A stretch of 64,000 nt of DNA, taken from contig DRFQ01000009.1 in assembly GCA_011050465.1 (NCBI GenBank), positions 334-64,333 on the forward strand. Reading direction: 5' to 3'. Made by a program: the position numbers and the translations under genes. The notes under the pieces were generated by a model. That model was not told the origin of the DNA. It searched no databases and saw nothing but the letters and a program-made list of their open reading frames with translations. Source of the DNA: Candidatus Nealsonbacteria bacterium (GTDB lineage Bacteria; Patescibacteriota; Minisyncoccia; Minisyncoccales; RBG-13-36-15). Shown piece by piece: positions 5,398 through 62,609 of the stretch (positions within the stretch are counted from its first letter, which is position 1; the number at the start of each line of letters is the position of its first letter).

Positions 5398-5434
5398 CAC
5401 TTCGACAAGCTCAGTGCAAGACAAAAATTCATCT

Positions 5435-34506: not shown

Positions 34507-35668
34507 ATGCCCAACACATCTTCCAGACTAAACGAACTTCAAGATAAACTCCATCATTTGATGGACTGTCTTTGAATTAGAGAAAAAGAAAGAGAAAATT
34601 AAAGAGCTGGAAAAAGAAAGAGAAAATCCTGATTTTTGGCAAAACCAGAAAAGAGCAGTCAGAATTAATCAAGACATCGCCCTTTTGAAAGAGGAAACAG
34701 AAAGACTCGAGAGTTTCAGAAAGGAACTGGACGATTTGGAAGAATTGAATAAATTAATTAAAGGAGAGGAGGTAAAAGACATTGAGAGCAAGATTGAATC
34801 TCTGGAAACAAAAATTAAAGAAGAAGAATTCAAAACTTTTCTCTCCGGAAAGTATGATAAATCTTCAGCTGTTCTTTCTATTTATGCAGGGGCCGGCGGA
34901 CAGGATTCTCAGGACTGGGCAACGATGCTGTTGAGAATGTATGAGAGATTTTGCTATGGCAGGGGATTTAGAACCAAAATTTTACATCAGTCTTTTGGCG
35001 AAGGCGGAGGGCCGGACGGAAGAATTGGGACGAAATCCGTAACCTTAGAAATTCAAGGGCACTATGCTTTCGGCTTTTTAAAAAAAGAATCAGGAGTTCA
35101 TAGGTTGGTTAGAATTTCGCCTTTTTCTCCCCAGCAACTTCGTCATACCTCTTTTGTTTTAGTTGAAGTTTTGCCGGAAATTGAAAAGGAGACAGAAGAT
35201 GAAATCAAAATCAAACCAGAAGATTTGAGAATTGATTTTTATCGAGCTTCGGGGCCCGGCGGCCAACATGTTAATCGTCGGGAAACAGCTGTCAGAATTA
35301 CCCATTTGCCAACCAACCTTGTGGCCTCTTGCCAGGCAGAAAGATCGCAGGGACAGAACAGAGAGAGAGCAATGAAGATGATTTATTCAAAACTTTATCA
35401 ATTGAAAGAGGCTGAACAGCAAGAAAAAATATCTCAGATAAAAGCCGCCGAACGGCAAGCTTCCCGCCTAAAGCGAGGTTCGCCCGAGGCGACGTCCGGA
35501 GGGCAGGGAAAAGCTATTTCAGCCAGCTGGGGAAATCAAATCAGGTCTTATGTCCTTCATCCATATAAATTAGTTAAAGATTTGAGAACCAATCTTGAAA
35601 CTTCAGACGTAGAAGGAGTATTAGACGGTAATCTGGGCCAATTCATTGAAGCCGGAATTAAAATATAA
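34507..35668 (+). CDS. prfB: Peptide chain release factor 2, with programmed +1 frameshift at 34570-34575 (CTT TGA)
   Basis: Frame 0 reads MPNTSSRLNELQDKLHHLMDCL then TGA. The +1 frame continues ELEKKKEKIKELEKERENPDFWQN..., then GGQHVNRRETAVRITH (GGQ) and WGNQIRSYV. A GC-rich in-frame insert lies at about 35444-35512. Confidence 0.9.
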
Positions 35669-37387: not shown

Positions 37388-37461
37388 TGCGGGGTCGTCT
37401 AACGGTAGGACGGATGCCTCTGGAGCATTTAATCTAGGTTCGAATCCTAGCCCCGCAGCCA
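37388..37461 (+). tRNA. tRNA-Gln (CUG), CCA encoded
   Basis: U1-A72 acceptor TGCGGGG/CCCCGCA, D arm GTCT-AACGGTA-GGAC, anticodon arm GATGC-CTCTGGA-GCATT, T arm CTAGG-TTCGAAT-CCTAG, then GCCA. Confidence 0.9.
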
Positions 37462-37487
37462 TCATATGCTAAGTCAGGTGACCGAGA
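37456..37487 (+). repeat. Left direct repeat (att-like): cagccatcatatgctaagtcaggtgaccgaga
   Basis: It matches 46194-46225 at 30 of 32 positions and overlaps the tRNA-Gln 3-prime end. Confidence 0.85.
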
Positions 37488-37489
37488 TG

Positions 37490-37511
37490 CCCGGCATTGC
37501 CGGGTGTTTTT
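37490..37511 (+). terminator. Hairpin plus T-run downstream of tRNA-Gln
   Basis: cccggc-att-gccggg followed by TGTTTTT. Confidence 0.5.
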
Positions 37512-37581
37512 AGTTATTGACTTTTTTTGAAAATAGAACAGAATTAAGGATGAATTATTATTTATAAAAAGAAATTTATAT

Positions 37582-38043
37582 ATGAATTTCGAAAGCATTA
37601 TTAAGGGAAGAATTGCCAGTATTATTACTAGCTTAATGTTTCAAGACGCTGATTATTTAGTCGTAAATTACGGACATGAAAGTATCCCTGATCGCCTTGT
37701 ACAATTAGGCGTCTCAAAAGACGGTAAGGCCGCGGAAGTATTACTCACTAGCCCATCTTTTATTGTCATGAATAAAAAGGATCGTTCCGTTAATTTGCTC
37801 CAAATCAGATACCAAGGTGAGGGCGCTAGTGGTAGAAATATTATTTGGAGATATGAAAAAATGCAGAGATATTGGCCTGGTAGTCATTTATTATTAGTTC
37901 GTCCCAGAAAGCCTTACTTTTTTATAATGACCGTAACAAAAAATGGGCCTAAGCCCATTCCATTAATAGATTCTAAAATTTTCAATGTAGATAAGGGAAT
38001 AGTTTTGAAATTTGGGCAATTCGTTAAGAAGTTTCTTTCATAA
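37582..38043 (+). CDS. Hypothetical protein (153 aa), first gene of the element
   Basis: An intact ORF with no confident motif. Confidence 0.4.
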   Translation: MNFESIIKGRIASIITSLMFQDADYLVVNYGHESIPDRLVQLGVSKDGKAAEVLLTSPSFIVMNKKDRSVNLLQIRYQGEGASGRNIIWRYEKMQRYWPGSHLLLVRPRKPYFFIMTVTKNGPKPIPLIDSKIFNVDKGIVLKFGQFVKKFLS

Positions 38044-38066
38044 AAAAGCCCAAGATTAACGCGGTG

Positions 38067-38102
38067 CTTTGACTACACTGCCTACAGGCAGTGTAGTCAA
38101 AG
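38067..38102. repeat. Perfect palindrome, 17-bp arms with a 2-nt centre
   Basis: ctttgactacactgcct-ac-aggcagtgtagtcaaag. Confidence 0.9.
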
Positions 38103-38263
38103 AGGAGACATTTGTCAATACCAAATCCGTAGTCATTATGAATAACATCAATGAAACTGATATCGATAGCAATGATTTTTTGGAAGGAATAAGAGTCATG
38201 CTCAATTATATTTTATCAGAAAATAGGAGAAAGCGCAAGCGCAAAAATAGTTAGAAAGCAAAT

Positions 38264-38291
38264 AAAAACCGCTTTATAATAGGCGGTTTTT
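38264..38291. terminator. Bidirectional hairpin terminator
   Basis: aaaaaccgc-N10-gcggttttt, with A/T runs on both sides. It lies just past the recombinase stop. Confidence 0.55.
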
Positions 38292-38298
38292 ATTTTTA

Positions 38299-39615
38299 CT
38301 ATTTTTCCAGCAGGATTTTTTTGTCTTTTAGAATTAGTTTGCTTTTCAGAAAGAAGAGGAATTCTCTTTTTTCAACCAGCGTTCCTTCTCTGAGAAGATA
38401 CTTTGCGTAATTTCGTATATCGATATCAACGTTATTATTTTCTTTTTTATGGCCCAGTACTCCGATCCTGAATTTATTGAATCTTGTGATTTCCTGTTCT
38501 ATTCTTGATTTTACCCCTAACTCATCTAAATCAATTCTATCCATCAATTCTATCAACTCGTTGATTAAATTTGGTTCATTGACAGCAGGATTTTTACAAT
38601 CAATATTTCTGGCTTTCGTGCAGAAATAATAGACGTGGCGGTTTACACCACCATCTTTTAATTTTTTGAACTTTTCATCAGCTGATATTCCCGAACCGCA
38701 ATAGCCGCATTTAATCAGTTTCGTGAAAGCGAATTCTTTGCTCTCGGTTTTTGGAATAAAGTTTTCATTAAGCGTCGTCTGAACCCTATCAAATAATTCC
38801 TTATTTATAATCGGCGTGTGCTTGCCAATATACCACTTGTTACTTCCCACTGGATATTCAAACTCTCCGTAATAGAAGTGATTTCGGAGAATGAGATAAA
38901 TGTTGGCAAGCACAAGCAGCTTGCCGTTTTTAGTTTTGAATTTTATCTCTCTCAGCCAACGATATACCTTACGTCCGCTCCATTGTTCGCTTGCCACTCT
39001 TTCAAACATCTGCTTTATAACCGGAGCTCTCTTTGGGTCAATCCTCGCCTGGCACTTTTTATCAGCGTGTTTTTCGTTGAGGTAGCCTGTAGGAGCGACT
39101 CCCGGCCTAAGTCCCATCTCGCATCTGGTTCGCAGCCCTCGCTTCACATTTACCGCTTTGTTGTCATTCTCGAGCTTAGCTTGAGATCCCAATATCATAA
39201 GCATGAACTTTTCGTTCGGGTTATTAGTGAATCTTTGCCCGAATGTCCTTATTTCCAATAGAAGCTTTTTATCCATCAAATCTACGATAGAACCTAAGTC
39301 TCCGGCATTTCTGCTCAGCCGGTCTGGAGCCCAAGTTAAAATACCATTGTATTTTCCTTCTTTTATTTCAGCCAGCATTTGATTAAAAATCTCTCTTTGG
39401 CCGACTTCCTTTGAAGAATGAGATTCGCGCTTGATATCTACAACTTTGAGGTTGTCTTTTTCTGCCAAAACCAACATCTCTTTTACCTGCGATTCTATAG
39501 AAAGAGTTTGTTTATCTTCTGCTTCAGTTGATTTTCTGGCATACAGGCAGTAACGTATATCAACCTTAACAGGGGATTGAAAATTATTAAGTCGTTCTTT
39601 TGTCGCTTGTTCCAT
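38299..39615 (-). CDS. Large serine recombinase
   Basis: N-terminal resolvase domain (CLYARKSTEAEDKQTLSIESQ), a recombinase domain, and a zinc-ribbon CGYCGSG...YYFCTK. Length 438 aa. Confidence 0.9.
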   Translation of the reverse strand: MEQATKERLNNFQSPVKVDIRYCLYARKSTEAEDKQTLSIESQVKEMLVLAEKDNLKVVDIKRESHSSKEVGQREIFNQMLAEIKEGKYNGILTWAPDRLSRNAGDLGSIVDLMDKKLLLEIRTFGQRFTNNPNEKFMLMILGSQAKLENDNKAVNVKRGLRTRCEMGLRPGVAPTGYLNEKHADKKCQARIDPKRAPVIKQMFERVASEQWSGRKVYRWLREIKFKTKNGKLLVLANIYLILRNHFYYGEFEYPVGSNKWYIGKHTPIINKELFDRVQTTLNENFIPKTESKEFAFTKLIKCGYCGSGISADEKFKKLKDGGVNRHVYYFCTKARNIDCKNPAVNEPNLINELIELMDRIDLDELGVKSRIEQEITRFNKFRIGVLGHKKENNNVDIDIRNYAKYLLREGTLVEKREFLFFLKSKLILKDKKILLEK

Positions 39616-39753
39616 ATCCTTGAATAGTCCTTAATTATTATAATTCGACCTTTCAAGGAGAGGATGCCGCAACGGCTCTGATGAGTCCAGGCCCCATCAG
39701 TTGACAACTTTTCAACCCAAAATTCTTCACTAATTTCATGGATAGACAAAAAA

Positions 39754-39768
39754 CTGCCAAAATGGCAG
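39754..39768. promoter_or_regulatory. Palindrome ctgccaaaatggcag (candidate operator O1) in the divergent control region
   Basis: 6-bp arms. It shares the CCAAA(A)TGG core with the palindrome at 39823-39840. Confidence 0.4.
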
Positions 39769-39816
39769 AATTAAGGTAGTTTTAAGAGAAATCAAACTTA
39801 TTCACAGGTTAATCTC

Positions 39817-39846
39817 TTGACACCCGACCAAATGGTCGGGTATTAT
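39817..39846 (+). promoter_or_regulatory. Promoter of the lexA-like/hsdM operon with an embedded palindromic operator (cccgaccaaatggtcggg, 39823-39840)
   Basis: TTGACA (39817-39822), an 18-nt spacer made up of the 18-bp palindrome, then TATTAT (39841-39846). ATG 39853 lies 6 nt after the -10 box. Confidence 0.5.
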
Positions 39847-39852
39847 AATATA

Positions 39853-40500
39853 ATGACTATAAAAAAAGAAATTATTACCAGAAGACAAAAAGAGTTATTA
39901 TCTATTATTTACGAATATATTAAGGACACTGGATATCCGCCAACCTTTGAAGAAATGAGAAAAAGATTAAATGTGTCCTCAAACCAATCGATTATCGATC
40001 TTTTGGTAAAATTAGAAAAACAGGGAGTTATTAAACGAAATGAGTCTTCGGCTCGAGGTTTAGCAATGTTGCCTTTAGGATATAGGATGCTTGGCCAACC
40101 GTCACTTGCTGCTTTTTTAGGCATTACAAGTGCAGGAGCACCCATTGAGGCTATAGAAATATCGGGAGAATGGCAATCAGTTTCTTCGGATATTAAAAAA
40201 CTTAAGGACGAAGTTTTTCTTTTGAAAATTTCCGGTGATTCAATGATTAATGCCGGTATTGAAGACGGCGATGTTGTTTTAGTAAAGGATCAAAAAGAAT
40301 TTTCCTCTCGCGATATTGTCTTAGCTCAAGTAGGGGACGACTCGACTATCAAGCGTTTTATTTCAGAAGATACACCACCATATGTTTATCTTAAGCCGGA
40401 AAATCCAAAATATAATATTATTCTTTTTACCGAAGAAAGTCGACTTATAGGAAAGGTTATTTCTGTTTTTAAAAATGGCTATTGGAAGCCGGTTAAATAA
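39853..40500 (+). CDS. LexA-like S24-peptidase repressor
   Basis: N-terminal winged-helix region (LLSIIYEYIKDTGYPPTFEEM..SNQSIIDLLVKLEKQGVI), an Ala-Gly cleavage-site context (SAGAP), Ser in GDSM and Lys in TIKRF. Confidence 0.85.
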   Translation: MTIKKEIITRRQKELLSIIYEYIKDTGYPPTFEEMRKRLNVSSNQSIIDLLVKLEKQGVIKRNESSARGLAMLPLGYRMLGQPSLAAFLGITSAGAPIEAIEISGEWQSVSSDIKKLKDEVFLLKISGDSMINAGIEDGDVVLVKDQKEFSSRDIVLAQVGDDSTIKRFISEDTPPYVYLKPENPKYNIILFTEESRLIGKVISVFKNGYWKPVK

Positions 40501-40509
40501 TTAAAATCT

Positions 40510-42465
40510 ATGCCAACTAAAAAACTCAATAAAACCAAAGAAATAATTGATAAAATTTTTCGCGACCCAGAAATAACCTATGGTTTAAAAGAATTCGAAG
40601 AAATTGACTTCGAAAAAGTTTTAGAAATTACCGAGGAAAGTCGAGATAAATTTTACATTAAAGACATTAAATCAAAAAAACTAAAACTTGTTTTTGATGA
40701 ATCAAAAAAGCAGGGTAAACCCGAAGAAATTATTCGACAACTTTGGCTCTACAAACTTAATACTCAGTATAAATATCCTTTTGATCGTATAGATACAGAA
40801 AAAAGTATTCACTTTGGTCGAGAGATTCACGCCAAAGCTGCTGACATCGTTGTTTATAAAAAAGATAAAATCACGCCGTTTATTATCCTAGAGATTAAAA
40901 GTCCAACCGAAAAGAAAGGAATTGAACAACTTAAAAGCTATCTTTCTGCCGAAGGTTCAGAAATAGGGGTTTGGTCAAATGGTAAAGAGCGAGTAATATT
41001 ATATAGACCATATCCAAAAGAGTTTCAAGATTCTTTAAGTGATATACCTCGAGCCGATCAAACCATCGACGATTTATTTGAAATCAAAAAAACTTGGTCC
41101 GAATTAAATCCAAAATTTGATTTTGTTAGAATTATCAAACGTATAGAAGAATTAGCTCTCGCTGGTTCTGGAGCAAATGTTTTTGAAGAAATCTTTAAAA
41201 TAATTTATGCCAAACTCTATGATGAAAAACTGGCACGTGAGCGGCGCGAGAACCAAGAAGTGCTTTTTAGGAAATATCGTGATCCCGAGAAAACATTTGA
41301 GGTGATCAACGACCAGCTTTTTAAAAATGCAATTAAAGAATGGCCAGATACTTTTGAAGAGTCAGATCGTATTAAGCTTTCTTCAGCAAGGCTTAATATC
41401 TGTGTGCCATTTTTGGAAAATGTTCGTCTTTTTGAATTAGGGAAAGGCGAACTGGAAATTATTGATAGTGCGTTTGAATATTTAATCACGGAAGTTTCAA
41501 AAGGTAAAAAAGGACAGTATTTTACACCTCGGCATGTCATCAAAATGTGTGTAAAGATGACGAATCCTAAAGCTGACGAATATATTATTGATCCCGCCTG
41601 TGGCTCCGGCGGTTTTCTTTTACATACAATGTATTATGTTTGGGAGAAATTAACCACAGAGGCAGCAAAAAATGATTATGCAGCAAAGTACCTCTTTGGG
41701 TTGGATTTTGACGAGAATATGCGTCGTATTTCCCAGGCTTTAATGCTTATTGCAGGTGATGGTAGACATCATATTTTTAAACGTGATTCACTTGATGCTC
41801 GGGACTGGCAAGGAGTAGAAAGCGAGGAGGCACGAGTAGCGTTGAAGCCGCTTTTATTAAAATTGGAAAATCCATCTGAAGCAAAAGAAAATCAACTTAC
41901 TTATAGGTATTTGAATTTTGACATTTTATTGACCAATCCGCCTTTTGCCGGAGAAAATCCCGAGTCAGGATTGTTGCGCCAATATGAACTTGCTAAAAAA
42001 GATGGCAAATTAAAGAATAATGTTGAGAGGCACATTCTTTTTATTGAGCGTTCTCTTGACGTCATTCGTCCTGGCGGCCGAATGGCAATCGTCTTGCCGC
42101 AAGGCGTCTTAAATAATACTAATATGGAGTTTGTCCGAGAATATGTTCTTAGTAAAGCAAGGATTTTAGCCGTAGTCGGACTCCATGTTAACACATTTAA
42201 ACCTCATGCTGGAACCAAAACTTCTATTTTATTTTTACAAAAATGGAATGAAAAAGAAAAACCACCTAAAAATTATCAAATTTTTATGGCGGTTTCAAAA
42301 AAGCCAGGCAAAGATAATTCCGGAGATTATGTGTATAAAAAAGATGATAAAGGAAATTATATTCACGATGCCAAAGGCCGTAAAGTTTTAGACCACGACC
42401 TCGGTGAGATCGCCGAAGCATTTGTTGATTTTGCCAAAAAACAAAAATTTAGTTTTTGGGAATAG
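40510..42465 (+). CDS. hsdM: Type I-like N6-adenine DNA methyltransferase (HsdM) fused to an N-terminal HsdR_N/PD-(D/E)xK-like domain
   Basis: Motif I DPACGSGGFL and motif IV NPPFAG. The N-terminal region AADIVVYKKDKITPFIILEIKSP...QLKSYL...WSNG resembles the HSDR_N nuclease-like fold (D...ExK). Confidence 0.85.
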   Translation: MPTKKLNKTKEIIDKIFRDPEITYGLKEFEEIDFEKVLEITEESRDKFYIKDIKSKKLKLVFDESKKQGKPEEIIRQLWLYKLNTQYKYPFDRIDTEKSIHFGREIHAKAADIVVYKKDKITPFIILEIKSPTEKKGIEQLKSYLSAEGSEIGVWSNGKERVILYRPYPKEFQDSLSDIPRADQTIDDLFEIKKTWSELNPKFDFVRIIKRIEELALAGSGANVFEEIFKIIYAKLYDEKLARERRENQEVLFRKYRDPEKTFEVINDQLFKNAIKEWPDTFEESDRIKLSSARLNICVPFLENVRLFELGKGELEIIDSAFEYLITEVSKGKKGQYFTPRHVIKMCVKMTNPKADEYIIDPACGSGGFLLHTMYYVWEKLTTEAAKNDYAAKYLFGLDFDENMRRISQALMLIAGDGRHHIFKRDSLDARDWQGVESEEARVALKPLLLKLENPSEAKENQLTYRYLNFDILLTNPPFAGENPESGLLRQYELAKKDGKLKNNVERHILFIERSLDVIRPGGRMAIVLPQGVLNNTNMEFVREYVLSKARILAVVGLHVNTFKPHAGTKTSILFLQKWNEKEKPPKNYQIFMAVSKKPGKDNSGDYVYKKDDKGNYIHDAKGRKVLDHDLGEIAEAFVDFAKKQKFSFWE

Positions 42466-42470
42466 AAATT

Positions 42471-44369
42471 ATGAAATTATTTCTTAAAGCAATTGAATTC
42501 GAAGATTACAGAAATATAAAAAATGGCTCAAGACTAATTTTTGAGCCTATTACTACTTTAGTTGGAGCAAATGAGAGCGGGAAGAGTAATATAATTAGAG
42601 CCATACAATTGTTATCCGAGGATTTTAATGAAAATGACACGAAAATGGGCAGTATTAGGGCATCAAGAAACGAAATGCCATTACTTAGGTATTTTTTTGA
42701 ACTTAAAAGTAAAGACCTGTTCGGATATTTTAAACAAAGTATTAAAAATTTCAGGGATAAAAATCTGATTTGTTTAATCGTAAGTGGTGAAACAAATGAA
42801 TTAATGTTATCAGATCAACGTTTTTCATTAAGGGAAATTGAATATAGAAATCAATGGAAGAATACTAGTGGTCAGCCCATGAAATTTAAGGCTCGCAAAG
42901 GAAAAGAGATAGAATTACAACAAAACGAAAAAATTTTTGGGGATAATGATAATAAATTTGCTATAGCGAAACTAGCTAGAGAGAATAAAATAACGAAACT
43001 TACGACTGAAGAAATAGACTCAGATGTTATAGATAAAATTTTTAAAGATTTTCTTCCAGAAATAGAATACTGGGAATATGACCAAGATAAACATTATCTT
43101 CCAGACCATGTATTCTGGGATAAATTTTTAACAGCGCCAGATAACTTTTTACCAGTTAAAAATTTATTTTTAATTGCTTGCTCCGAAGGAAATCTAACAG
43201 ATTTTAATACTGCCTTATCTAGTTTTAAAGGTAAAGATCATGAGATTCAAAAATATCTTGATGATGTTAGTAAGTCGCTTAACAAAATTATCAAAAAAAC
43301 ATGGAAGCAAAGCAATATAGAACTACAACTTTTTTATCAAACAGATAAATTGAGATTTGATATATACGAAGGAGGTCGCAGAACTCCTCCAAGCGTAAGA
43401 AGCGATGGTTTAAAATGGTTTCTTTCCTTTTTGCTTGATTTTAGATCAAGAGGTGAGTTGCAAAATAAGATTATTTTATTTGATCAACCGGGTGAGAAAT
43501 TACACCCCGGTGGTCAAAAAGAGTTACGAGAGCGTTTTACAGAAATTGCTTTAAAAAATCAAGTGATTTTTGCAACCCAATCTCCATTTTTAATTGATCG
43601 TAATTCTTGGTCAAAAGTAAAATTTTTACAAAGAAAAAATGGAGACCCTGAAATTAAGCAACCTACTAAATATGATGTAAAGAACGATGAATTACTTCGG
43701 CATTCACTTGGGTATTCACTGGCAGATGTGGGACAAGCCAATGACTTTAATATTGTCGTAGAGGGTTATACCGACCAGTTTTTATTATTAGATATAGGAA
43801 GAAGACTTAATGAAATAGCGTCTTATTTAGAAAAGAAACCGATTATTAATTTAAATAAGATAGCTATCTTTGATTCGCGTGGATTTACCACAATTAAAAA
43901 AAGGGTTGATGAATTACTACAAGCTAATTTGCATGCCATCGGCCTTTATGATGGCGATGATGTTAGTAAAAAACGGTTCTCTCAAGATCGTAAATCTAAG
44001 AGATTTAGAAATCTTCTATTTTCCTTAGATGAAATAGTTGATCAGAATAATTATAAAACGATTGAGGATTTAGTCCCTGAAAGATTATGGGAGAAATCAT
44101 GCAAGGAATATTTTAAAAAGAATCGGTCTAAATTAACTAAGAAAAACTTTTGTCATCCTCGTTGGGGAAAAATTAAGGAATGGTACAAGAATAACTATAA
44201 TACCGAAATTACCCGAAAAGAGAAAGAGAGTCTATGGGAAGTTATTTTTGATAATTGGGATCAATATTTTGATAGCGTAAAAGATATTTCAAAAATTTCT
44301 GAGATTAATATAACAAAACAGGCATTAGAAAGTTTAGCTAAAAAAGTTGCTCGTGGAAAGAATAAATAA
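42471..44369 (+). CDS. OLD-family protein: ABC-type ATPase fused to a C-terminal TOPRIM nuclease domain
   Basis: Walker A GANESGKS, SDGLKWFLSF (signature-like), ILFDQPGEKLHP (Walker B region), and TOPRIM VVEGYTDQ ... GLYDGDD. The start is taken at ATG 42471 (MKLFLK). Confidence 0.75.
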   Translation: MKLFLKAIEFEDYRNIKNGSRLIFEPITTLVGANESGKSNIIRAIQLLSEDFNENDTKMGSIRASRNEMPLLRYFFELKSKDLFGYFKQSIKNFRDKNLICLIVSGETNELMLSDQRFSLREIEYRNQWKNTSGQPMKFKARKGKEIELQQNEKIFGDNDNKFAIAKLARENKITKLTTEEIDSDVIDKIFKDFLPEIEYWEYDQDKHYLPDHVFWDKFLTAPDNFLPVKNLFLIACSEGNLTDFNTALSSFKGKDHEIQKYLDDVSKSLNKIIKKTWKQSNIELQLFYQTDKLRFDIYEGGRRTPPSVRSDGLKWFLSFLLDFRSRGELQNKIILFDQPGEKLHPGGQKELRERFTEIALKNQVIFATQSPFLIDRNSWSKVKFLQRKNGDPEIKQPTKYDVKNDELLRHSLGYSLADVGQANDFNIVVEGYTDQFLLLDIGRRLNEIASYLEKKPIINLNKIAIFDSRGFTTIKKRVDELLQANLHAIGLYDGDDVSKKRFSQDRKSKRFRNLLFSLDEIVDQNNYKTIEDLVPERLWEKSCKEYFKKNRSKLTKKNFCHPRWGKIKEWYKNNYNTEITRKEKESLWEVIFDNWDQYFDSVKDISKISEINITKQALESLAKKVARGKNK

Positions 44370-44375
44370 CTACTT

Positions 44376-45737
44376 ATGGTTACTCATCTCATAATCCAAA
44401 AATCACAACTAGAAGGCGGTTTGCGTCTTGATGCGGAATATTATCAACCGGAATATTTAGAGTTAAAAAATAGATTGTGTAAAACCGAATCATATAAATT
44501 CTGGAAAGATATTAAAGGAAACTTTATTACGGGACCCTTTGGCTCAGAATTTAATGTTGAAAACTATGTTTTAAACGGGAAATATCGGTATGTTCGTGGA
44601 AAAGACGTTAAAGAATTTTTCCTTTCTGACGATGATAACGTATATATACCCCAAAAAGACTTTGAAAGACTTAAAAAATATTCATTAAAAGAAAATGATA
44701 TTTTAATTTCAGTTGTTGGAACGCTTGGAAATGCTGCTATTATTGATAATTCTGTTCCTCCAGCAATTTTTAGCTGTAAGAGTACAGTTTTTCGTAGCGA
44801 ATCGATAAATCCTTACTATTTTATTAGTTATCTTAATTCGCTTTATGGTCGAAAATTATTAGGCCGTAATGTACGCGGCGCAGTTCAGACAGGACTTAAT
44901 ATTGATGATTTGAGATTATTGCCAGTATTTATTCCACCAAAACAACAACAGGAATTGATTGGTTCGTTGGTCTCGAAGGCAAAGGAGGAATATGAAAATA
45001 CTAAATTATTTTATTCTCAAGCTGAAGATTTACTTTTAGAAGAATTGGGTTTAAAAGATTTTGAAGTCGGGGATGATTTGTCTTATGTTGTTAATCTTTC
45101 AGATTTAAAATTAGTTAACCGTATTGATGCCGAGTACTTTCAGCCGAAACACGAGAAATTAATATCAAAAATTAAAAACCAAAATATAAAAAAACTTGCT
45201 GATTTAGTTTCAATAAAAAAGGGGATTGAGATAGGAAGTGAGAAATATCAAAAAGAGGGAAAGTTATTTGTTCGAGTGAGCAATCTTTCAAAACAGGGGA
45301 TTATTGATAAGGATCAGAAATATTTAAGCGAAGAATTATATCAGAAACTAAAAAAAGATTTTGAGCCAAAAGCAGGAGAAATTTTACTAACTAAAGATGC
45401 AACTCCGGGCATGGCTTATTTATTAAAAGAATCAATTGAGGGAATAATTGCCGGCGGAATTTTAAGATTAAAACCCGAAACAAAAATCGAACCAGAATAT
45501 TTAGCTTTAGTGATAAATTCTATTGTTGGTCAATCACAAGTAGAACGAGATACCGGTGGTTCAGTAATTATCCACTGGCGACCAGAACAAATTAAAAATT
45601 GTTCAATTCCAATTTTACCTAAATCTACCCAGCAAAAAATTGCTGATTTGGTTCGCCAATCCCACGAAGCTCGCAAAAAAGCAAAAGAATCATTAGAACA
45701 AGCCAAACAAAAAGTCGAAGAATTAATTGAGAAATAA
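44376..45737 (+). CDS. hsdS: Type I restriction-modification specificity subunit (two target-recognition domains)
   Basis: Duplicated TRD openings RLDAEYYQPEY and RIDAEYFQPKHEKL. Conserved helical spacers (QQQELIGSLV, QQKIADLVRQ). Confidence 0.85.
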   Translation: MVTHLIIQKSQLEGGLRLDAEYYQPEYLELKNRLCKTESYKFWKDIKGNFITGPFGSEFNVENYVLNGKYRYVRGKDVKEFFLSDDDNVYIPQKDFERLKKYSLKENDILISVVGTLGNAAIIDNSVPPAIFSCKSTVFRSESINPYYFISYLNSLYGRKLLGRNVRGAVQTGLNIDDLRLLPVFIPPKQQQELIGSLVSKAKEEYENTKLFYSQAEDLLLEELGLKDFEVGDDLSYVVNLSDLKLVNRIDAEYFQPKHEKLISKIKNQNIKKLADLVSIKKGIEIGSEKYQKEGKLFVRVSNLSKQGIIDKDQKYLSEELYQKLKKDFEPKAGEILLTKDATPGMAYLLKESIEGIIAGGILRLKPETKIEPEYLALVINSIVGQSQVERDTGGSVIIHWRPEQIKNCSIPILPKSTQQKIADLVRQSHEARKKAKESLEQAKQKVEELIEK

Positions 45738-45748
45738 TCAAAAATATT

Positions 45749-46018
45749 ATGACAAAAATTAAAGTTAAAAAAATAACAGATGGTGACACCTTTCAGGGCA
45801 CAAGGGGTGGATTTTACCGCTTAGCTAATGTTGATGCTCCCGAAAAAAGAGAGCGGGGGTATCAAAAGGCCAAAGAAACCTTAAAAGAACTTATTGAAGG
45901 CGAAAAGCTTATTGTTAAAGTTGAGGGCACATCTTATGGTAGAAAAGTTGCAACCGTCAGAATACCAGGCGAAAAAACGAGTATTAATGAAAAAATGAGG
46001 CGTAGGGGTTATAAATAG
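45749..46018 (+). CDS. Small staphylococcal-nuclease-like (SNase/thermonuclease fold) protein
   Basis: ITDGDTF, YRLANVDAPE and SYGRKVATV match the SNase Ca-binding and catalytic residues. At 89 aa it is shorter than typical SNases. Confidence 0.65.
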   Translation: MTKIKVKKITDGDTFQGTRGGFYRLANVDAPEKRERGYQKAKETLKELIEGEKLIVKVEGTSYGRKVATVRIPGEKTSINEKMRRRGYK

Positions 46019-46193
46019 AATTTCCTCAGGTCGTTTTTAAAATGGTACGTCATACTATCCCAAATGGAACACCCCCTTTCTGTGTCCCATTTGTCCCATT
46101 TTAGCTTAAAAAGCCCCGACCGAGACGCCTAAATGGAACACGGCCAAAATCGCCCAAAACACCCTTAAAACTGGGGTTCAGAACTGAGGTACA

Positions 46194-46225
46194 CAGCCAT
46201 CCTATGCTAAGTCAAGTGACCGAGA
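46194..46225 (+). repeat. Right direct repeat (att-like): cagccatcctatgctaagtcaagtgaccgaga
   Basis: 30/32 match to 37456-37487. Confidence 0.85.
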
Positions 46226-46258
46226 CTTGTTCGATTTGAGTCCTGAGCCAGCAATATA

Positions 46259-47224
46259 ATGATTGATCAACTATCCAATTTAATAGTTAATCTGGACCTT
46301 GTCTTTCTGGCTATTTCGCCAATGGTTTTTGTGTTTAGCGTTACCTTGTTGGGCGACGCTATTGGACATGCGCAACAAGAGGAAAAAGCTGCCAGAGACA
46401 ATGATAAAATCACCATACAAAAAGATATAACAGAGGTGGAAACAGCCTTAGAAGAAACTAAAAGGAAGGGATATATCACCGACAAACTTGATGAAAATTT
46501 AACACGATTACAAAGTAGACGGCAGCAAACTGAAAAGAAAATTAGGGATATAAAAATTAAATATAGCGCTATTGATCTTAGAAATACTGTTGTATATCCT
46601 TGTTTTTCTTTTCTACTCTCTATTTTAATTGACCCGCTTAGAAATCTATCGGGAAATTTTGATATATCTTATTATTTAATTTTCTTTTCACAAACACTTT
46701 TATTTTTATACGGTTTTATAAAAATTTATAAAAGTCTTCAACTCGTACAACAGACAACCACCAAGAAAAAATCTGGAGAATACTTTAGGCATATAAAAAC
46801 AGCTTTTAAAGATGCGCTGGAAGAATATTATCAAAGCACAAAAGAAGAGGTTTCTGTAGAGTTTAAAGATATAGCTTTTCCGTTAAATATAGCGCCGTCA
46901 ACAGAATTAAATATTTTTCTAAGGACGGAGCTAATAAAAGGCTCTCTTCTAAGAAACGCATCTGTATGGTTTTATGTCGCTGATGGCTTAGAGTTAATTG
47001 ATCCTCCCGAAACTAGTAGTTGGAGGCAATCGGCAGACTATAACCCACCAAACATCCGAACAGTTAAAGTTGATCTTGGTGATTTAAGTATAGGTCAATA
47101 TATTCCAAGGACTCTAAAACTTAAAATGCCAACAATTCCAGGAAAATACTTACTTAGATATGTAGTCAAGGGGGATGGTTATTCTGGACCATCAAAAGAT
47201 TTAACATTATTGGTGACTGGATAA
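46259..47224 (+). CDS. Hypothetical membrane protein with coiled-coil and a C-terminal beta-rich domain
   Basis: One N-terminal TM helix, a charged helical segment, two to three TM helices and a C-terminal region of about 120 aa. No motif recognised. Confidence 0.45.
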   Translation: MIDQLSNLIVNLDLVFLAISPMVFVFSVTLLGDAIGHAQQEEKAARDNDKITIQKDITEVETALEETKRKGYITDKLDENLTRLQSRRQQTEKKIRDIKIKYSAIDLRNTVVYPCFSFLLSILIDPLRNLSGNFDISYYLIFFSQTLLFLYGFIKIYKSLQLVQQTTTKKKSGEYFRHIKTAFKDALEEYYQSTKEEVSVEFKDIAFPLNIAPSTELNIFLRTELIKGSLLRNASVWFYVADGLELIDPPETSSWRQSADYNPPNIRTVKVDLGDLSIGQYIPRTLKLKMPTIPGKYLLRYVVKGDGYSGPSKDLTLLVTG

Positions 47225-47352
47225 ATTCGTCCCTGACCGAGACGCGTCAATGAGACACGCCTCAAACCCCCTAATTTCCCCTTAAAACACAGGTTCTAGA
47301 CTAAGGATGTCAGCAACAGTCAGCGCAGTATCGAGGCCGACCGAGAGGCCTC

Positions 47353-47404
47353 AAAATCGCCAACCTGTCCGCCTCTGGAGGAGAAGGCGGTTTTTTGATA
47401 GAAT
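47353..47404 (+). repeat. 52-nt junction module (hairpin terminator plus TGATAGAAT extended -10)
   Basis: aaaatcgccaacctgtccgcctctggaggagaaggcggttttttgatagaat. A 50/52 identical copy lies at 61900-61951. Shorter variants lie at 48873-48903 and 62572-62600. Confidence 0.85.
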
Positions 47405-48856: not shown

Positions 48857-48925
48857 TTAAGCATAAGGCAATAAAAATCGCCAAGAAGGCGGTTTTTTGA
48901 TATTCGTCCGAGAGTTGCCTTGGGC

Positions 48926-49712: not shown

Positions 49713-49725
49713 AGCCCCGCAGCCA
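49713..49725 (+). repeat. Exact 13-nt copy of the tRNA-Gln 3-prime end (agccccgcagcca)
   Basis: Identical to 37449-37461. It abuts the start of the 147-nt repeat. Confidence 0.8.
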
Positions 49726-49866
49726 AGCACAACTCGGTATCGAGGGCGACCGATTCCCGTACAAAATTGGTTCGAGTCCAGGTGCCGTCGCGGTACTAGA
49801 CCGAGGCGGTTCGAGTCGCAGCCCCCCAGCACCAGTCAGCGCAGTATCGAGGCCGACCGAGAGGCC
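49720..49866 (+). repeat. 147-nt direct repeat, copy A
   Basis: It differs from 51151-51297 at 5 positions by eye. It contains two degenerate tRNA T-arm-like segments (ggttcgagtcc, ggttcgagtcg) and ends in gaccgagaggcc. Confidence 0.9.
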
Positions 49867-50032: not shown

Positions 50033-51091
50033 ATGGACAAATTAACTTTTAGAAAAAAGTTGGAAGGTCAATTAGAGCAATTCTACTCTGATGAAATACA
50101 AATCGCACCAACCCCGCAATTTACAAAACTATTGGAAAGGATGAAGTCTTTAACTCTAGCAGGTGGGAAACGATTTCGCCCTTATGTCGCTTTCTTAACC
50201 TACTCTTCATATGGTGGAAAAGATTTCGATAAATTACTACGAGTTGCCCTTTCTTCAGAGCTTCTACATAATTATATATTGATTCACGATGATATCATTG
50301 ATAATGACCTAGAGCGTTATGGGGTGCTAAACATAACCGGGCAATACCTCAAAGATTTTACCTCACTAGAAAATGATTCGGACAGATTAAGACTTGCAGA
50401 AGGAATGGCAATAATAGCGGGTGATATTGGACACTCACTCGCATACAAGAACTTATTAAGTATCGATTCTCTTGATGATAGGGAGAAAAAACAATTATGC
50501 AAGCTCTTAACTAACTGCAACATTGACCTGTTGGCTGGACAACAAATGGATACTCTTAATATTGAATTATTGATTGATGATTTTACATTAGATCGGTTAA
50601 TAACCACCTGCATGCTTAAATCCTCTTCATACTCGACGATAATTCCTATGAAAATGGCTGCGATTCTACTTGATTTAAATAATAGAGAAGTTAAACTAAT
50701 AGAAAAATTTGCCGTTCAGTTCGGAATACTTTACCAACTTGTCGATGACTACTCTGACTATTTTATTAATAAGACCGATTTCAATATAAAGGCCAAATAT
50801 AGAGATTTTAGACAAGGGAAAATAACTCATCCATATTTTGTGGCGCTAGAACTCGCAAGCGAACAGGAACGAGATTTTCTTAAAGAAAATTTTGGAAATA
50901 AAAAAATACCTCAAGACCAATTAGAAAGAGTTACAAATATCTTGCTAAATTGTGGAGCAAAAGACAAGGCGATAGAATTAATTTCCAAATATGCAGTGGA
51001 ATCTCAAAATTGCCTTAACAAATTGAATATTTCTAAGGAAGGAAAAAATCAAATGCTAGGGCTGATTGAGCACTATAAAACTGTTGTTTAA
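50033..51091 (+). CDS. Polyprenyl diphosphate synthase (trans-isoprenyl diphosphate synthase family)
   Basis: First Asp-rich motif LIHDDIIDND and second motif VDDYSD. Confidence 0.8.
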   Translation: MDKLTFRKKLEGQLEQFYSDEIQIAPTPQFTKLLERMKSLTLAGGKRFRPYVAFLTYSSYGGKDFDKLLRVALSSELLHNYILIHDDIIDNDLERYGVLNITGQYLKDFTSLENDSDRLRLAEGMAIIAGDIGHSLAYKNLLSIDSLDDREKKQLCKLLTNCNIDLLAGQQMDTLNIELLIDDFTLDRLITTCMLKSSSYSTIIPMKMAAILLDLNNREVKLIEKFAVQFGILYQLVDDYSDYFINKTDFNIKAKYRDFRQGKITHPYFVALELASEQERDFLKENFGNKKIPQDQLERVTNILLNCGAKDKAIELISKYAVESQNCLNKLNISKEGKNQMLGLIEHYKTVV

Positions 51092-51150: not shown

Positions 51151-51297
51151 CAGCCAAGCACAACTCAGTATCGAGGGAGACCGATTCCCGTACAAAATTG
51201 GTTCGAGTCCAGGTGCCGTCACGGTACTAGACCGAGGCGGTTCGAGTCGCAGCCCCGCAGCAACAGTCAGCGCAGTATCGAGGCCGACCGAGAGGCC
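51151..51297 (+). repeat. 147-nt direct repeat, copy B
   Basis: See copy A. Confidence 0.9.
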
Positions 51298-54300: not shown

Positions 54301-54527
54301 CGGCTTCTGGCGGAAACGGTACGGTTGATGCTGATTATGACAATAGTCCAGCTGACAGCTATGCCCTCATTACTGGTAACTTTCCGGATGTGATTGCAAC
54401 AGACGCAGACGGCGATGACGTGAGCACCACATATTCGCTCTACTATGCAGCAAACATTACCGCAAACACCGAGGCCCACACCGACTACACTTCCAGCCTA
54501 ACCTACGTTGCAACCGGAAACTTTTAG
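51360..54527 (+). CDS. Large (1055 aa) Thr/Ser/Asn/Gly-rich cell-surface protein with N-terminal membrane anchor, internal repeats, FN3-like module and a C-terminal domain shared with the next gene
   Basis: TM helix LAICLILLMVAGWIF. A motif repeated three times (YTRVRSSALTL / WTRVRGASAL / YTRLRSSGLTL). ITINWTT...YSYKHF is FN3-like. The last 190 aa or so are paralogous to 54678-55817. It is GC-richer than the core genes. Confidence 0.7.
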   Translation: MAKIVKNKLGNFLAICLILLMVAGWIFSGWPQVWHDPPFPPKVEDVHATTRTIEQQINIIDQEYESEVLGSYKPTDNSLGLIRWDSAKYPGAVVYFEAVAMVFAETDTVKVALFSSDGTQVANSEVTHSSAGNYTRVRSSALTLGTLPNLQSNTDYSVRVKAVNDWVSLKAARLIIVQSDGTKITDTVTQIEAGDNQSTTATSGSPSTLANPNYYMFDKDMFSGTYGTDINAYFEASLKASAILSAAAYYFNAYDSGTAWTNAPAQMVDGSTSNFAVTGGSDENQRNTASTCDATCGAKSETITKVELRVYACQDNADNGWITLTPYFSGSSQGDGHTWSAVPDGNSCETGVAAWSPYFDITSDTNAPGTWGWSDVENLDVNVFGDRQGGADVIHAAQVDIQVTYEPGTTSTAYAELYNRTNSAVVGNSTISVNSTSWTRVRGASALNSSDNWDITNDDEYEVRIYSSSGSDAAYIANAKIVIEQSISGGIDKLETVHQYNNTLVSLGGDVVTVYAQLTISGGAAISGSKQSTGSGSYTRLRSSGLTLSTNDFDVELSVNDSAYTEQGFMNKYDSTNWVGGTFVYLFETILKNVVTVREDSSTSWLIIQISGLASIIATTTIGDGTDPSDSTVAPESGITDLDAVTFVTNTGTDSITAVTVTLGAGDSDNLSEVRITNDNGLTTYFSAISSPSSDTLNFSGGTPIPVTASSTQFKVRITPETHANMPAPQGAEYAITGTITAFTSTNTQAGTDTGSAMITIDNLSPNNATSTSGSVTSDTEITINWTTSNSTDYNRSIVLRWQASLPGADVPAEGTNYSLDDTIGGAKVACVENTGTSSTAYSGVDGSGADECSTTALSVGTQYSYKHFEKDDNGNWNTGFTNASSPLTTTGGATLTFSISDNDIFFGDLSASASKWADNTADGSTTAVVAHTLAASTNVTNGYTITVNGTTLTSGGDTIIAMASEAILTTGQEEFGLRITASGGNGTVDADYDNSPADSYALITGNFPDVIATDADGDDVSTTYSLYYAANITANTEAHTDYTSSLTYVATGNF

Positions 54528-54677: not shown

Positions 54678-55817
54678 ATGAACCAACTATATTTTATAAG
54701 AAGAAACATAGATATAAAAAAAGTCCTTACCAGCTTGGGGCTTATTGTCGCAGTGCTGGTGTTGTTGATAGCGCCGCCCGTGCAGATTGCAAGGGCAGCT
54801 ACCTTGCTGAACATGAGAGACACTCTCACTACCGTGAAGGCAAGTACCGTAACTGACCATGAGATTATATTCCGCACGCCAACGGGAGCTGATGAGTCCA
54901 CAGACACCATCATCATTGACATTGGAGCTACCGATACCTCGTGGAATACCAGCAGCTTAGCGATTGGTGACGTGGATTTGGCGCACTCAGCCGGTGCCCA
55001 GAGCGACTGCGACGCTCCAACATTCAGCAACGAGGAGACACTTGCAGCTTCCGCTACCGCCACCGATTGGCAACTGGACTTTGACACCACAAACGATATC
55101 CTTACCTTCACTGCCCCAACAGACGGCGTGGGAGCCGCTGCTATTGCAACTAACGCCTGTGTGCAGATACAGATTGGTACCAATGCTAGTGGAGGATCAA
55201 ACCAGATTACCAACAGCACTGCGGGCAGCAAGAATATAGACATTTTGGGTACCTTTAACGACACCGGTACCATAGTGGTAACGCTCATAGCTGACGATAT
55301 AGTAGTGACAACTGCCACGGTCGTTGCTTCTCTAACGTTTACCGTTGATGATAATGATATCTTTTTTGGCACCTTGGGCGCTGGGGCAGCAAAATGGGCA
55401 GATAATACCGCAGACGGAAGCACTTCGTCAGTCGTTGGCCACACCATGACCGTAGGTACCAACAGTACATCCGGCTACAGTGTTACTTACAACGGTACCG
55501 CGCTCACGTCTGGTTCAGATAAAATTTCCGATAGCGGCAACACCACCATTACCGGAGATGCGGACGGAACTCCCGGCTCAGAGGAGTTTGCCATTGGGGT
55601 TACCGTGAGCGACAACGCGACTATTGCTTCTGGATATGAGCAGGCCTCCAACAACTTCAAGTTTGTTGAAAGCACCACTGCCACACTTGTCTCTGAAACT
55701 ATTCAAACCGCCGCAGAAACAATCTCTGTCTACTACATAACCAACATTGCCGCAAACACCGAGGCCCACATCGACTACACTTCCAACATAACCTACATTG
55801 CAACCGGGAACTTCTAG
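54678..55817 (+). CDS. Secreted surface/fibre-subunit-like protein, paralogous C-terminal domain
   Basis: Signal peptide ending IARA-ATLL. The C-terminal domain (DNDIFFG..KWADNTADGST...TEAHIDYTSNITYIATGNF) aligns with the C-terminus of the 1055-aa protein. Confidence 0.7.
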   Translation: MNQLYFIRRNIDIKKVLTSLGLIVAVLVLLIAPPVQIARAATLLNMRDTLTTVKASTVTDHEIIFRTPTGADESTDTIIIDIGATDTSWNTSSLAIGDVDLAHSAGAQSDCDAPTFSNEETLAASATATDWQLDFDTTNDILTFTAPTDGVGAAAIATNACVQIQIGTNASGGSNQITNSTAGSKNIDILGTFNDTGTIVVTLIADDIVVTTATVVASLTFTVDDNDIFFGTLGAGAAKWADNTADGSTSSVVGHTMTVGTNSTSGYSVTYNGTALTSGSDKISDSGNTTITGDADGTPGSEEFAIGVTVSDNATIASGYEQASNNFKFVESTTATLVSETIQTAAETISVYYITNIAANTEAHIDYTSNITYIATGNF

Positions 55818-60857: not shown

Positions 60858-60888
60858 TAGGTTCGAACAGCGTTCACGCCCCGCAGCA
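60858..60888 (+). pseudogene. Degenerate copy of the tRNA-Gln 3-prime half (taggttcgaa...gccccgcagca)
   Basis: It shares taggttcgaa and gccccgcagc with tRNA-Gln 37438-37461, but the T stem is disrupted. It marks the far end of the accessory region. Confidence 0.55.
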
Positions 60889-60993
60889 CTTCGACAAGCT
60901 CAGTGCAGGCCACCTTGAGCGCAGTATCGAGGCCGACCGTGAGGGCTTCCCGTTAGGGCGACCGAGATGGATATAAGTAAAAAAAATCGCTAG

Positions 60994-61899: not shown

Positions 61900-61951
61900 A
61901 AAATCGCCAACCTGTCCGCCTGTGGAGGAAAAGGCGGTTTTTTGATAGAAT
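61900..61951 (+). repeat. 52-nt junction module, second copy
   Basis: 50/52 identical to 47353-47404. Confidence 0.85.
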
Positions 61952-62538: not shown

Positions 62539-62609
62539 AATAAGCTGACCGAGCCGCGATTTACGAATTTTAAAATCGTCAATCTGGCGATTTTTTGATA
62601 TCCAAAAAC

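Follow-up and report, generated by a model that had tools for sequence, protein, structure and literature searches.

A large serine recombinase element with conserved attachment arms at the 3′ end of a tRNA-Gln gene in a Patescibacteria genome

Introduction

The DNA considered here is a stretch of 64,000 nt (the window) of contig DRFQ01000009.1, which belongs to a Patescibacteria genome from marine sediment (Candidatus Nealsonbacteria). It harbours an 8.7-kb segment that is a real integrated mobile element of this uncultivated bacterium of the candidate phyla radiation (CPR). The sole recombinase of the element is a large serine recombinase (LSR), and its ends are marked by direct repeats of 32 nt. 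How does a serine recombinase come to be flanked by such a long repeat? The first-pass annotation, which described the element from the sequence letters, saw two possible answers. Either the repeat is a relic of a tyrosine recombinase, or the LSR uses unusual 32-nt sites. The analysis reported here points to a different explanation. The element is one member of a very large LSR family, the hallmark of which is a recombinase of ~437 aa. We consider it likely that members of this family are inserted at the 3′ end of tRNA-Gln, that they carry two attachment arms, here termed P′ and P, and that they line up in a tandem array. The 32-nt repeat would then be made up of CAGC and the conserved P′ arm, of which two independent copies are present. 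The family at tRNA-Gln is large and apparently undescribed. In full-text literature searches no paper was found that names both Patescibacteria and large serine recombinases, and a recent survey of Patescibacteria genomic islands nowhere mentions integrase, recombinase or tRNA.

The left repeat copy starts in a tRNA-Gln gene

37388..37461, + strand: tRNA-Gln (anticodon CTG), the presumed integration target (ARAGORN; Rfam tRNA, 60.9 bits)
37456..37487, + strand: attL junction and left repeat copy, with the tRNA end CAGC, a short putative exchange region and the P′ arm CATCATATGCTAAGTCAGGTGACCGAGA
37484..37510, + strand: terminator-like hairpin right after P′, a 12-pair stem followed by a T run

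Upstream (left) of the tRNA-Gln gene are the housekeeping genes for DnaE, release factor 2 (RF2), FtsE, and FtsX. Comparison of the two repeat copies (37456-37487 and 46194-46225) confirmed the 30 matches in 32 positions that had been annotated. None of 100 shuffles gave an equal match, and a weaker similarity between the copies goes on 19 nt leftward. What had been overlooked is that the left copy starts within the last 6 nt (CAGCCA) of tRNA-Gln(CTG). The 3′ end of this tRNA (..GCAGCCA) makes up the left half of the attachment site. In the following, we use the term core for the 23 nt at the heart of the repeat, TATGCTAAGTCARGTGACYGAGA. Transcription of tRNA-Gln would be terminated within the element by the hairpin right after P′; relatives have an equivalent hairpin in the interval that separates the core from the stop codon of the integrase gene. 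The core itself was also considered as an RNA hairpin (TATGC..GCATA). This candidate was dropped because the 3′ partner is missing in many copies, both window copies included. An Rfam scan of the window returned four tRNAs only, and neither the core nor the P arm matches a described RNA family.

The integrase belongs to a widespread LSR family

38299..39615, − strand: LSR of 438 aa, its 3′ end pointing toward the tRNA and the P′ arm (Pfam)

The enzyme is a true LSR. It contains the Resolvase (PF00239, 2e-20, residues 24-168), Recombinase (PF07508, 1e-14) and Zn_ribbon_recom (PF13408, 1.5e-7) domains. The S29 nucleophile within Y25-A-R27-K-S29-T (YARKST) and the zinc ribbon cysteines C303, C306, C332 and C340 are invariant in 33 homologues. 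Both sequence and fold match the integrases of SPbeta (SprA), Bxb1 and phiC31, and a Foldseek search returned the full-length structures of these three with E values from 1e-11 to 2e-6. In the AlphaFold2 model (mean pLDDT 63, below 50 in the zinc-ribbon region) helices span residues 347-421 and a beta hairpin residues 427-436, so that a coiled-coil motif within the zinc ribbon is only suggested.

More than 120 protein clusters with 77-93% identity, all of 435-440 aa and all from CPR lineages, constitute the family. The host marker FtsX is only 37-56% identical in genomes with relatives of the integrase. When both proteins are compared in the same loci, L054 and L082, the LSR is 84-85% identical to that of the window and FtsX 41-44%. 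Such a discrepancy indicates that the integrase family moves horizontally.

The core accompanies the 3′ end of the integrase gene

Exact matches to TATGCTAAGTCARGTGACCGAGA were found in 40 metagenome contigs, and a version of the core allowing GACYGAGA was found in 41 contigs of species-representative genomes. Almost all of these 81 contigs are from Patescibacteria, covering many Parcubacteria/Paceibacterota lineages as well as Saccharibacteria. Of 85 copies of the core outside the window, 33 lie 6-7 nt after a genuine tRNA-Gln. Two copies are located after tRNA-Trp, nine after a P arm, and 12 after a shorter tRNA-like arm. The two tRNA-Trp(CCA) genes followed by the core (L029 and L058) have a 3′ end (..CCCTGCCA) that resembles the one of tRNA-Gln.

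The genes to the right of the core are highly varied, and many are defence-like (AIPR, HATPase_c_3, DUF4145, DUF4238, methyltransferases, DEAD-box helicase). At 12 core loci, homologues of the LSR were detected right of the core. They are 72-94% identical, apart from one weaker, partial match of 51%. Without exception, the LSR of these loci is encoded on the opposite strand and its 3′ end faces the core; no LSR is found to the left of the core. Starting from the integrase instead of the core gave the same arrangement. In all six integrase-first loci (P0001, P0003, P0083, P0044, P0033, and the viral contig L101) the core is positioned 3′ of the LSR in the same orientation, with 0-4 mismatches; four of them are beside tRNA-Gln and two beside the shorter arm. 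At the most compact loci only a terminator hairpin separates the stop codon from the core, a distance of ~45 nt. The core is thus best regarded as the P′ arm, that is, as an element-borne sequence adjoining the integrase gene at its 3′ end, and not as a target duplication or a host sequence.

The right end carries a tRNA-like arm and abuts a second cassette

46114..46201, + strand: P arm of ~88 nt, which forms the conserved right terminus of element 1 (nhmmer profile, E=4e-17)
46194..46225, + strand: junction of element 1 and cassette 2 and right repeat copy, with the P arm end and the P′ arm of the neighbouring cassette
46226..47315, + strand: cassette 2, without integrase, with one 321-aa open reading frame (ORF; 46259-47224) and its own P arm at the right end
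47232-47315, + strand: P arm 2, the end of cassette 2 (nhmmer, E=9e-22)
46062..46141, no strand assigned: AATGGRACA motifs, four copies in two orientations, around the first GACCGAGA

Element 1 was defined as positions 37462-46201 and cassette 2 as positions 46226-47315. The P arm profile (CCCCGACCGAGACGCGTCAATGAGACAC...CCCTTAAAAC..GGTTCTAGACCGAGGATGCCAGC) was found in about 35 loci. Its last ~25 nt (GGTTCAGAACTGAGGTACACAGC) imitate the T-arm and the 3′ strand of the acceptor stem of tRNA-Gln; according to a by-eye count, 14 of the last 23 nt match. An RNA structure of this pseudo T-arm was rejected, as it pairs in some copies only. Around the first GACCGAGA of the P arm (46062-46141), AAATGGAACAC and GTGTCCCATTT(GTCCCATTTT) form an inverted repeat. 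At the same place the relatives L007, L090 and L108 have GTCTCATTT..AATGAGACAC, and in relatives with GTCTCATTTGTCTCATTT ... AATGAGACAC at this position the two arms of the inverted repeat co-vary. It could be a protein-binding site or a hairpin.

An alignment of 28 unique P-arm junctions revealed conservation up to ..CAGC, after which the similarity collapses. The P arm is followed by the core (11 cases), by other related tails, or by unrelated sequence such as terminators and gene starts (L066, L041 twice, L034, L007, L013, L063, L023, L019, and L108). The complete LSR element of L090 has the core at attL, on the tRNA side, and none after the arm at its right end (attR). The collapse of the junctions at this point suggests that strand exchange is confined to a few nt after ..CAGC, at the discriminator/CCA position of the tRNA. 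Partner sites share almost nothing past ..CAGC, as is normal for serine integrases.

Close relatives of the host show what the locus looks like without the element. In L106/L107 (FtsX 76% identical) and L109 (79%), tRNA-Gln is followed by unrelated sequence, and there is no core, P arm or LSR; L109 shares the DnaE-RF2-FtsE-FtsX-tRNA synteny with the window. A third host relative, L108 (FtsX 73%), has different cassettes at tRNA-Gln. At the naive sites L106 and L109, the sequence right of the tRNA bears no relation to P′. Together with the collapse of the P-arm junctions, this means that attP and attB have little in common apart from a short crossover core. With the unoccupied tRNA-Gln in two host relatives and with family members in the same position and orientation beside the 23-nt core, the annotation of the 8.7-kb segment as an integrative element with an LSR as its only recombinase holds true.

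From these data the following mechanism may be proposed. The circular attP would consist of the P arm with its tRNA-Gln 3′-half mimic of ~25 nt, a short exchange region, and a P′ arm of ~28 nt (CRTCMTATGCTAAGTCARGTGACYGAGA), in this order, with P′ sitting just 3′ of the integrase gene. The integrase would pair this site with the 3′ end of the chromosomal tRNA-Gln gene and catalyse the swap of strands within a few nt after ..CAGC, which corresponds to the discriminator G and the first C of CCA; the crossover dinucleotide would presumably be found here. The tRNA would be kept intact and would gain an element-borne terminator. As the target to the right of the tRNA would hardly be constrained, new elements could enter an occupied site, and repeated entry would build a tandem array in which the youngest element is the one next to the tRNA.

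Cassette 2 provides the reason for the long repeat. The 76-nt stretches 46114-46189 and 47231-47306, which belong to the two P arms, are 71% alike. Because element 1 abuts an integrase-less cassette with its own P′ copy, the window has a 32-nt repeat, which reads as CAGC followed by P′ on either side. The 30/32 identity would reflect the conservation of P′ throughout the family and not a duplication made by recombination. Integrase-less cassettes are common, since 21 other loci have a core and, 0.55-6.6 kb further on, a P arm, with no integrase in between.

Alternative explanations for the repeat and the element

One may ask whether the 32-nt sequence was already present in the target, so that a single integration, with exchange at or right of the core, left the repeat as a true att identity block of long homologous sites. 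Both ends of element 1 carry the core, and many tRNA-Gln genes have it without an integrase, several of them also without a P arm in the 3-8 kb available downstream (for example L005, L050, L052, and L081). Moreover, the sequence immediately right of GACCGAGA differs between loci. However, the core is missing from the naive tRNA-Gln sites of the closest host relatives, it follows tRNA-Trp in two genomes, and about 10 P arms, including the one of the complete L090 element, continue into unrelated sequence instead of the core. Core variants also follow the element subtype and not the host. The combination of CCGTCT with ..GACTGAGA and TGCATACATG.. occurs in five hosts with differing tRNA-Gln (L068, L069, L077, L085, and L090). 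We therefore regard a pre-existing core as quite unlikely.

Of the two answers in the first-pass annotation, the first, by which the repeat was left behind by an older tyrosine-integrase island at the tRNA and the serine recombinase has nothing to do with the ends, is highly improbable. No tyrosine recombinase (Phage_integrase) was found in the element ORFs, in the scanned ORFs of the flanks and the array, or in the gene tables of the relatives, and the position and orientation of the core relative to the LSR are fixed at all loci with an LSR of 80% identity or more. Integration at a tRNA 3′ end with tRNA-derived repeats is indeed the classic signature of tyrosine integrases (PMC4383910), and there is a second arm type, GGTTCTAACGTCGTCCAAGCCCCGCAGCCA, with a stronger resemblance to a displaced tRNA 3′ end. 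Yet the repeat flanking a tRNA island should be a block of the tRNA, whereas here the overlap amounts to 6 of the 32 nt and the remainder is P′ arm. The other answer, unusual 32-nt sites, is not supported either, with P′ present twice and exchange probably taking place a few nt after ..CAGC.

The element could also be a fixed, decaying and immobile remnant, the integrase of which is perhaps kept for stabilising or rearranging the array. Contigs with identical FtsX, LSR or 321-aa protein from four assemblies are all 100% identical to the window, and this lack of any polymorphism would suit a remnant, as would the truncated SNase ORF, the absence of the ParB-methyltransferase (MTase)/TerS/TerL module present in relatives, and the failure to recognise a directionality factor. 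Still, we find a remnant rather unlikely, because the LSR ORF is full length with intact family-invariant residues and 93% identical to a copy beside tRNA-Gln(TTG) in a different genome. Both attachment arms are also well preserved, and the repressor and its promoter are intact. The element may be mobile at present.

It is important to note that several observations weigh against insertion by the LSR at the tRNA end, as favoured here. The reconstructed attP has no clear centre of dyad symmetry at the junction (best values 41-45%); attB shows no clear centre either. GACCGAG is found thrice across the reconstructed attP in direct, not inverted, orientation, an arrangement that would be unexpected for a symmetric integrase dimer. 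These sites are located at the 5′ end of the P arm (46118), in the pseudo T-loop of the P arms of relatives, and in the P′ core (46218). For canonical serine integrases, neither attL nor attR is a partner of attP. As such enzymes avoid occupied sites, tandem arrays would require a relaxed choice of partners. About 60 nt of the P arm are conserved beyond what a half-site needs, and neither this nor the co-varying inverted repeat (46062-46141) is explained by the mechanism. No small ORF common to the LSR elements across the family was found that could be a recombination directionality factor, and neither an empty site nor a circle junction of element 1 was detected among the contigs encoding identical LSR, FtsX or 321-aa protein. 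Finally, most core loci were retrieved by searching for the core itself, which biases the statistics by ascertainment, and the integrase-first sample is small, with six loci.

An array of att-like modules extends to the right of the tRNA

47316..47350, + strand: variant P′-type tail ACAGTCAGCGCAGTATCGAGGCCGACCGAGAGGCC after P arm 2; the same tail follows a P arm in L006
49696..49866, + strand: composite att-like module of pieces resembling the tRNA-Gln 3′ end and GTATCGAGG..GACCGA tails
51151..51297, + strand: second copy of the 147-nt composite module, 97% identical
60860..60967, + strand: most distal att-like module in the window

The sequence GACCGAGA, the end of the repeat, occurs in eight copies in the window, where 1.2 would be expected by chance. 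All eight copies, as well as the four CCCCGCAGC and six GTATCGAGG motifs of the 64 kb, are on the + strand and at or right of the tRNA. Around the GACCGAGA copies there are pieces like the tRNA-Gln 3′ end, followed by related tails of ~30 nt. This pattern suggests an array of at least five units over ~23 kb from the tRNA onward, parts of which have an elevated G+C content. The composite module that is 12 kb downstream of tRNA-Gln in the window directly follows tRNA-Gln in the host relative L108. This would fit an insertion of newcomers beside the tRNA, with older units pushed outward. To locate the distal end of the island, the genes downstream of the unoccupied tRNA-Gln in relatives (HTH_17, DegV, EF-P, and Fmt) were looked for in the window; none of them is there.

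The 147-nt repeats (49720-49866 and 51151-51297) flank a polyprenyl synthetase gene (50033-51091). Near the distal module, a different sequence recurs. The trailer of tRNA-Asp, CTTCGACAAGCTCAGTGCA (5399-5420), is found again at 60889-60907 and directly after a P arm in L108 (13477-13495). Another element family, with tRNA-Asp as its target, may use this sequence as attachment tail. Near-identical terminators (AAAATCGCC..GGCGGTTTTTTGATA) are located at 47353-47404, 48874-48903, 61900-61951, and 62572-62601. Members of this terminator family also follow att junctions in the unrelated Patescibacteria contigs L015, L031, and L066.

Cargo genes and the link to phages

37582..38043, + strand: 153-aa ORF between P′ and integrase
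40510..42465, + strand: HsdM, type I DNA methyltransferase with an N-terminal, nuclease-like HSDR_N_2 domain (Pfam N6_Mtase 6e-37, HSDR_N_2 1e-19; PADLOC MTase_I 2.5e-162)
42456..44369, + strand: OLD-family ATPase/nuclease between hsdM and hsdS (Pfam AAA_21, AAA_15; PADLOC Old 1.4e-21)
44376..45737, + strand: HsdS specificity subunit with two target-recognition domains (Pfam Methylase_S, two matching stretches; PADLOC Specificity_I 3e-49)
45749..46018, + strand: SNase-like ORF, 89 aa (Pfam SNase 3e-8, profile positions 3-73 of 107; phrog_452 7e-15)

The HsdM, HsdS and OLD-family matches in Pfam and PADLOC bear out the defence-type cargo that had been annotated. Five + strand genes, from a LexA-type repressor to the SNase ORF, are separated by gaps of 6-11 nt or overlap, consistent with an operon. 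The content of this gene list proved to be as annotated, except that LexA had been counted twice and that the 89-aa SNase-like ORF is probably a fragment, since the relative L112 has a SNase of 335 aa beside its type I restriction-modification (R-M) genes. In the OLD protein, AAA_21 and AAA_15 match over residues 10-381. The PADLOC Old model covers residues 334-556 with its profile positions 282-506 of 578, which represent the C-terminal nuclease part. HsdR is absent among the element ORFs according to Pfam and PADLOC, and thus the type I R-M set is incomplete. A MADS defence system was also considered. As the PADLOC matches to mad2, mad3 and mad5 are far weaker than those to the generic type I and OLD models, membership is not claimed. 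In the second half of hsdS, the contigs L002 and L003 from two independent assemblies both end exactly at position 45488. This shared end may be due to strain variation in the specificity gene.

The slot between P′ and the integrase is variable and is empty or filled with unrelated genes in relatives. Its 153-aa ORF in the window has no counterpart at the other loci. The 153-aa protein and the 321-aa protein of cassette 2 were searched against Pfam, PADLOC and PHROGs; the 153-aa protein has no match, and for the pair as a whole a marginal PADLOC match at 0.003 was the only one.

The cargo of relatives is likewise of the defence type. L088 and L112 have a complete type I R-M system (HsdMSR), and L086 has an MmeI-like enzyme and a PLD-SNF2 protein. 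In L111, the element encodes a large AAA_11/AAA_12 helicase-like protein; a UvrD/PD-(D/E)XK helicase is found further upstream, and beyond the integrase there is a reverse transcriptase. In L040, L086, L088, L104, and L111, genes for a ParB-MTase, TerS, and TerL (phrog_38, 2e-72) are directly upstream of the LSR gene. ParB-methylase, TerS and TerL without capsid genes were noted in L040, L086, L088, L101-L104, and L111, some of which are called viral. Because of these members, the family is probably derived from phages or phage satellites. No packaging or capsid genes were detected in the window element with Pfam and PHROGs; it is a stripped-down version without packaging genes. Likewise, no family for replication or conjugation was matched among the element ORFs, in agreement with the first annotation.

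A LexA-type repressor is encoded next to the integrase

39616..39708, − strand: leader of ~90 nt upstream of the integrase start codon, conserved at the nucleotide level between the window, L086, L088, L090, L040, L069, and L071
39754..39768, no strand assigned: palindrome CTGCCAAAATGGCAG between the divergent genes, a candidate operator or terminator
39817..39846, + strand: promoter-like site TTGACA-18-TATTAT for the LexA operon (11/12 match)
39823-39840: palindrome CCCGACCAAATGGTCGGG between the promoter hexamers, a candidate auto-operator
39853..40500, + strand: LexA-type repressor, 215 aa from the ATG at 39853 (mechanical ORF start 39817; Pfam)

The repressor matches LexA_DNA_bind (PF01726, 5.6e-16) and Peptidase_S24 (PF00717, 1.2e-24), and its translation contains the Ala-Gly site (SAGAP), the serine (GDSM), and the lysine (TIKRF). 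It is predicted to be a self-cleaving protein with a winged-helix DNA-binding domain. LexA represses the ccr recombinase genes of the staphylococcal cassette chromosome SCCmec (PMC5397144). As this is a direct precedent, it appears reasonable to expect that the divergent LexA-type repressor would release the integrase gene in an SOS-type response.

The leader of the integrase gene holds a CTGATG..CATCAG hairpin and a stretch, GAGGATGCCGCAAC, that resembles the end of the P arm. It could serve as an autoregulatory site or as a cis-RNA.

Comparison with known integrative elements

In its architecture, the locus is reminiscent of the staphylococcal cassette chromosome (SCC), SCCmec, and the Enterococcus cassette chromosome (ECC), which are mobilised by Ccr-type LSRs. 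They too are site-specific serine-recombinase islands at the 3′ terminus of a conserved housekeeping gene (PMC6222049, PMC5397144, PMC5964201), with long direct repeats, a cargo without transfer machinery, tandem cassettes, and LexA/SOS control of the recombinase, the last being a putative trait in our element. The repeats of the ECC island are ~50 bp long (PMC6222049). As in SCC/ECC, cassettes with and without a recombinase stand in tandem with repeated att sequences between them. In contrast to these systems, the element targets tRNA-Gln instead of rlmH and employs one recombinase instead of the CcrA/CcrB pair. Its att sequences are unrelated and its attP arm mimics a tRNA, the host is a member of the Patescibacteria, and the repressor is encoded on the element itself. 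The likeness to the Ccr systems is one of architecture.

The tycheposons and related islands of Prochlorococcus, which resemble phage-inducible chromosomal islands (PICI), are likewise compact cargo shuttles at specific tRNA genes that leave partial tRNA pieces behind (10.1101/2020.12.28.424599). They build larger islands by repeated integration, and some members carry a terminase small subunit in the manner of phage satellites, features that they share with the element family (10.1101/2020.12.28.424599). Induction by DNA damage and the minority with a large serine recombinase may be added to the similarities (10.1101/2020.12.28.424599). However, 910 of 937 tycheposons use tyrosine recombinases (10.1101/2020.12.28.424599). 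Their hallmark replication genes are absent here, and their cargo serves nutrient acquisition, whereas the cargo of the element serves defence.

With the integrases of the phages SPbeta (SprA), Bxb1, phiC31, and A118, the LSR has in common the domain architecture and the fold, the apparent restriction of exchange to a few nt, and an attP beside the integrase gene. The TerS and TerL genes of the relatives are another likeness to temperate phages. With 438 aa, the LSR is at the small end of the size range of the phage enzymes. Unlike these, it has att sites without a visible dyad, no directionality factor was found, the target is a tRNA end, and insertion into occupied sites seems to be tolerated. 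Successive integrations that regenerate one att site are known to give rise to tandem arrays, in which unrelated integrative elements come to lie next to each other (PMC7192596). The arrays described there mostly involve tyrosine integrases and a crossover core regenerated at both ends, whereas the repeated unit at our locus is the P′ arm of the element.

In principle, the element is an ordinary one. What is worth following up is the phylum-wide family, the tRNA-mimicking arm, and the cassette array. Taken together, these traits might indicate a cassette-accretion platform at tRNA-Gln that operates across the phylum and is run by one highly conserved serine integrase, which would mainly recognise the tRNA 3′ half, be little affected by the sequence right of the tRNA, and let incoming elements stack beside it. 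The many integrase-less cassettes between a P′ and a P arm could be excised and moved in trans. Such a platform is a possibility that we put forward tentatively and with some doubt. If it exists, it would be a main route of defence-gene exchange among bacteria with tiny genomes and a ready-made tool for site-specific integration. Mobile elements of the CPR are poorly described. In this family, the integrase is defined, the attachment arm hardly varies, and the chromosomal target is present in many CPR lineages. The family would explain the spread of R-M and other defence genes among reduced genomes, and it illustrates how a serine integrase would target a tRNA gene end via an attP arm imitating the tRNA. 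Organisms that are very hard to manipulate could possibly be addressed with this integration system. For annotation, the lesson is that long direct repeats around a serine-integrase element may be conserved att arms of tandem neighbours and not crossover cores.

Further observations in the window

Two features outside the element may be mentioned. The RF2 gene upstream of the tRNA (34685-35668) gives a protein of 327 aa in some assemblies and of 386 aa in another, a difference consistent with the usual programmed +1 frameshift. Further to the right, two adjacent ORFs of 1055 aa and 379 aa, both without a family match, are alike at their 3′ ends over 89 nt at 87% (54439-54527 and 55729-55817), which points to a shared C-terminal module.

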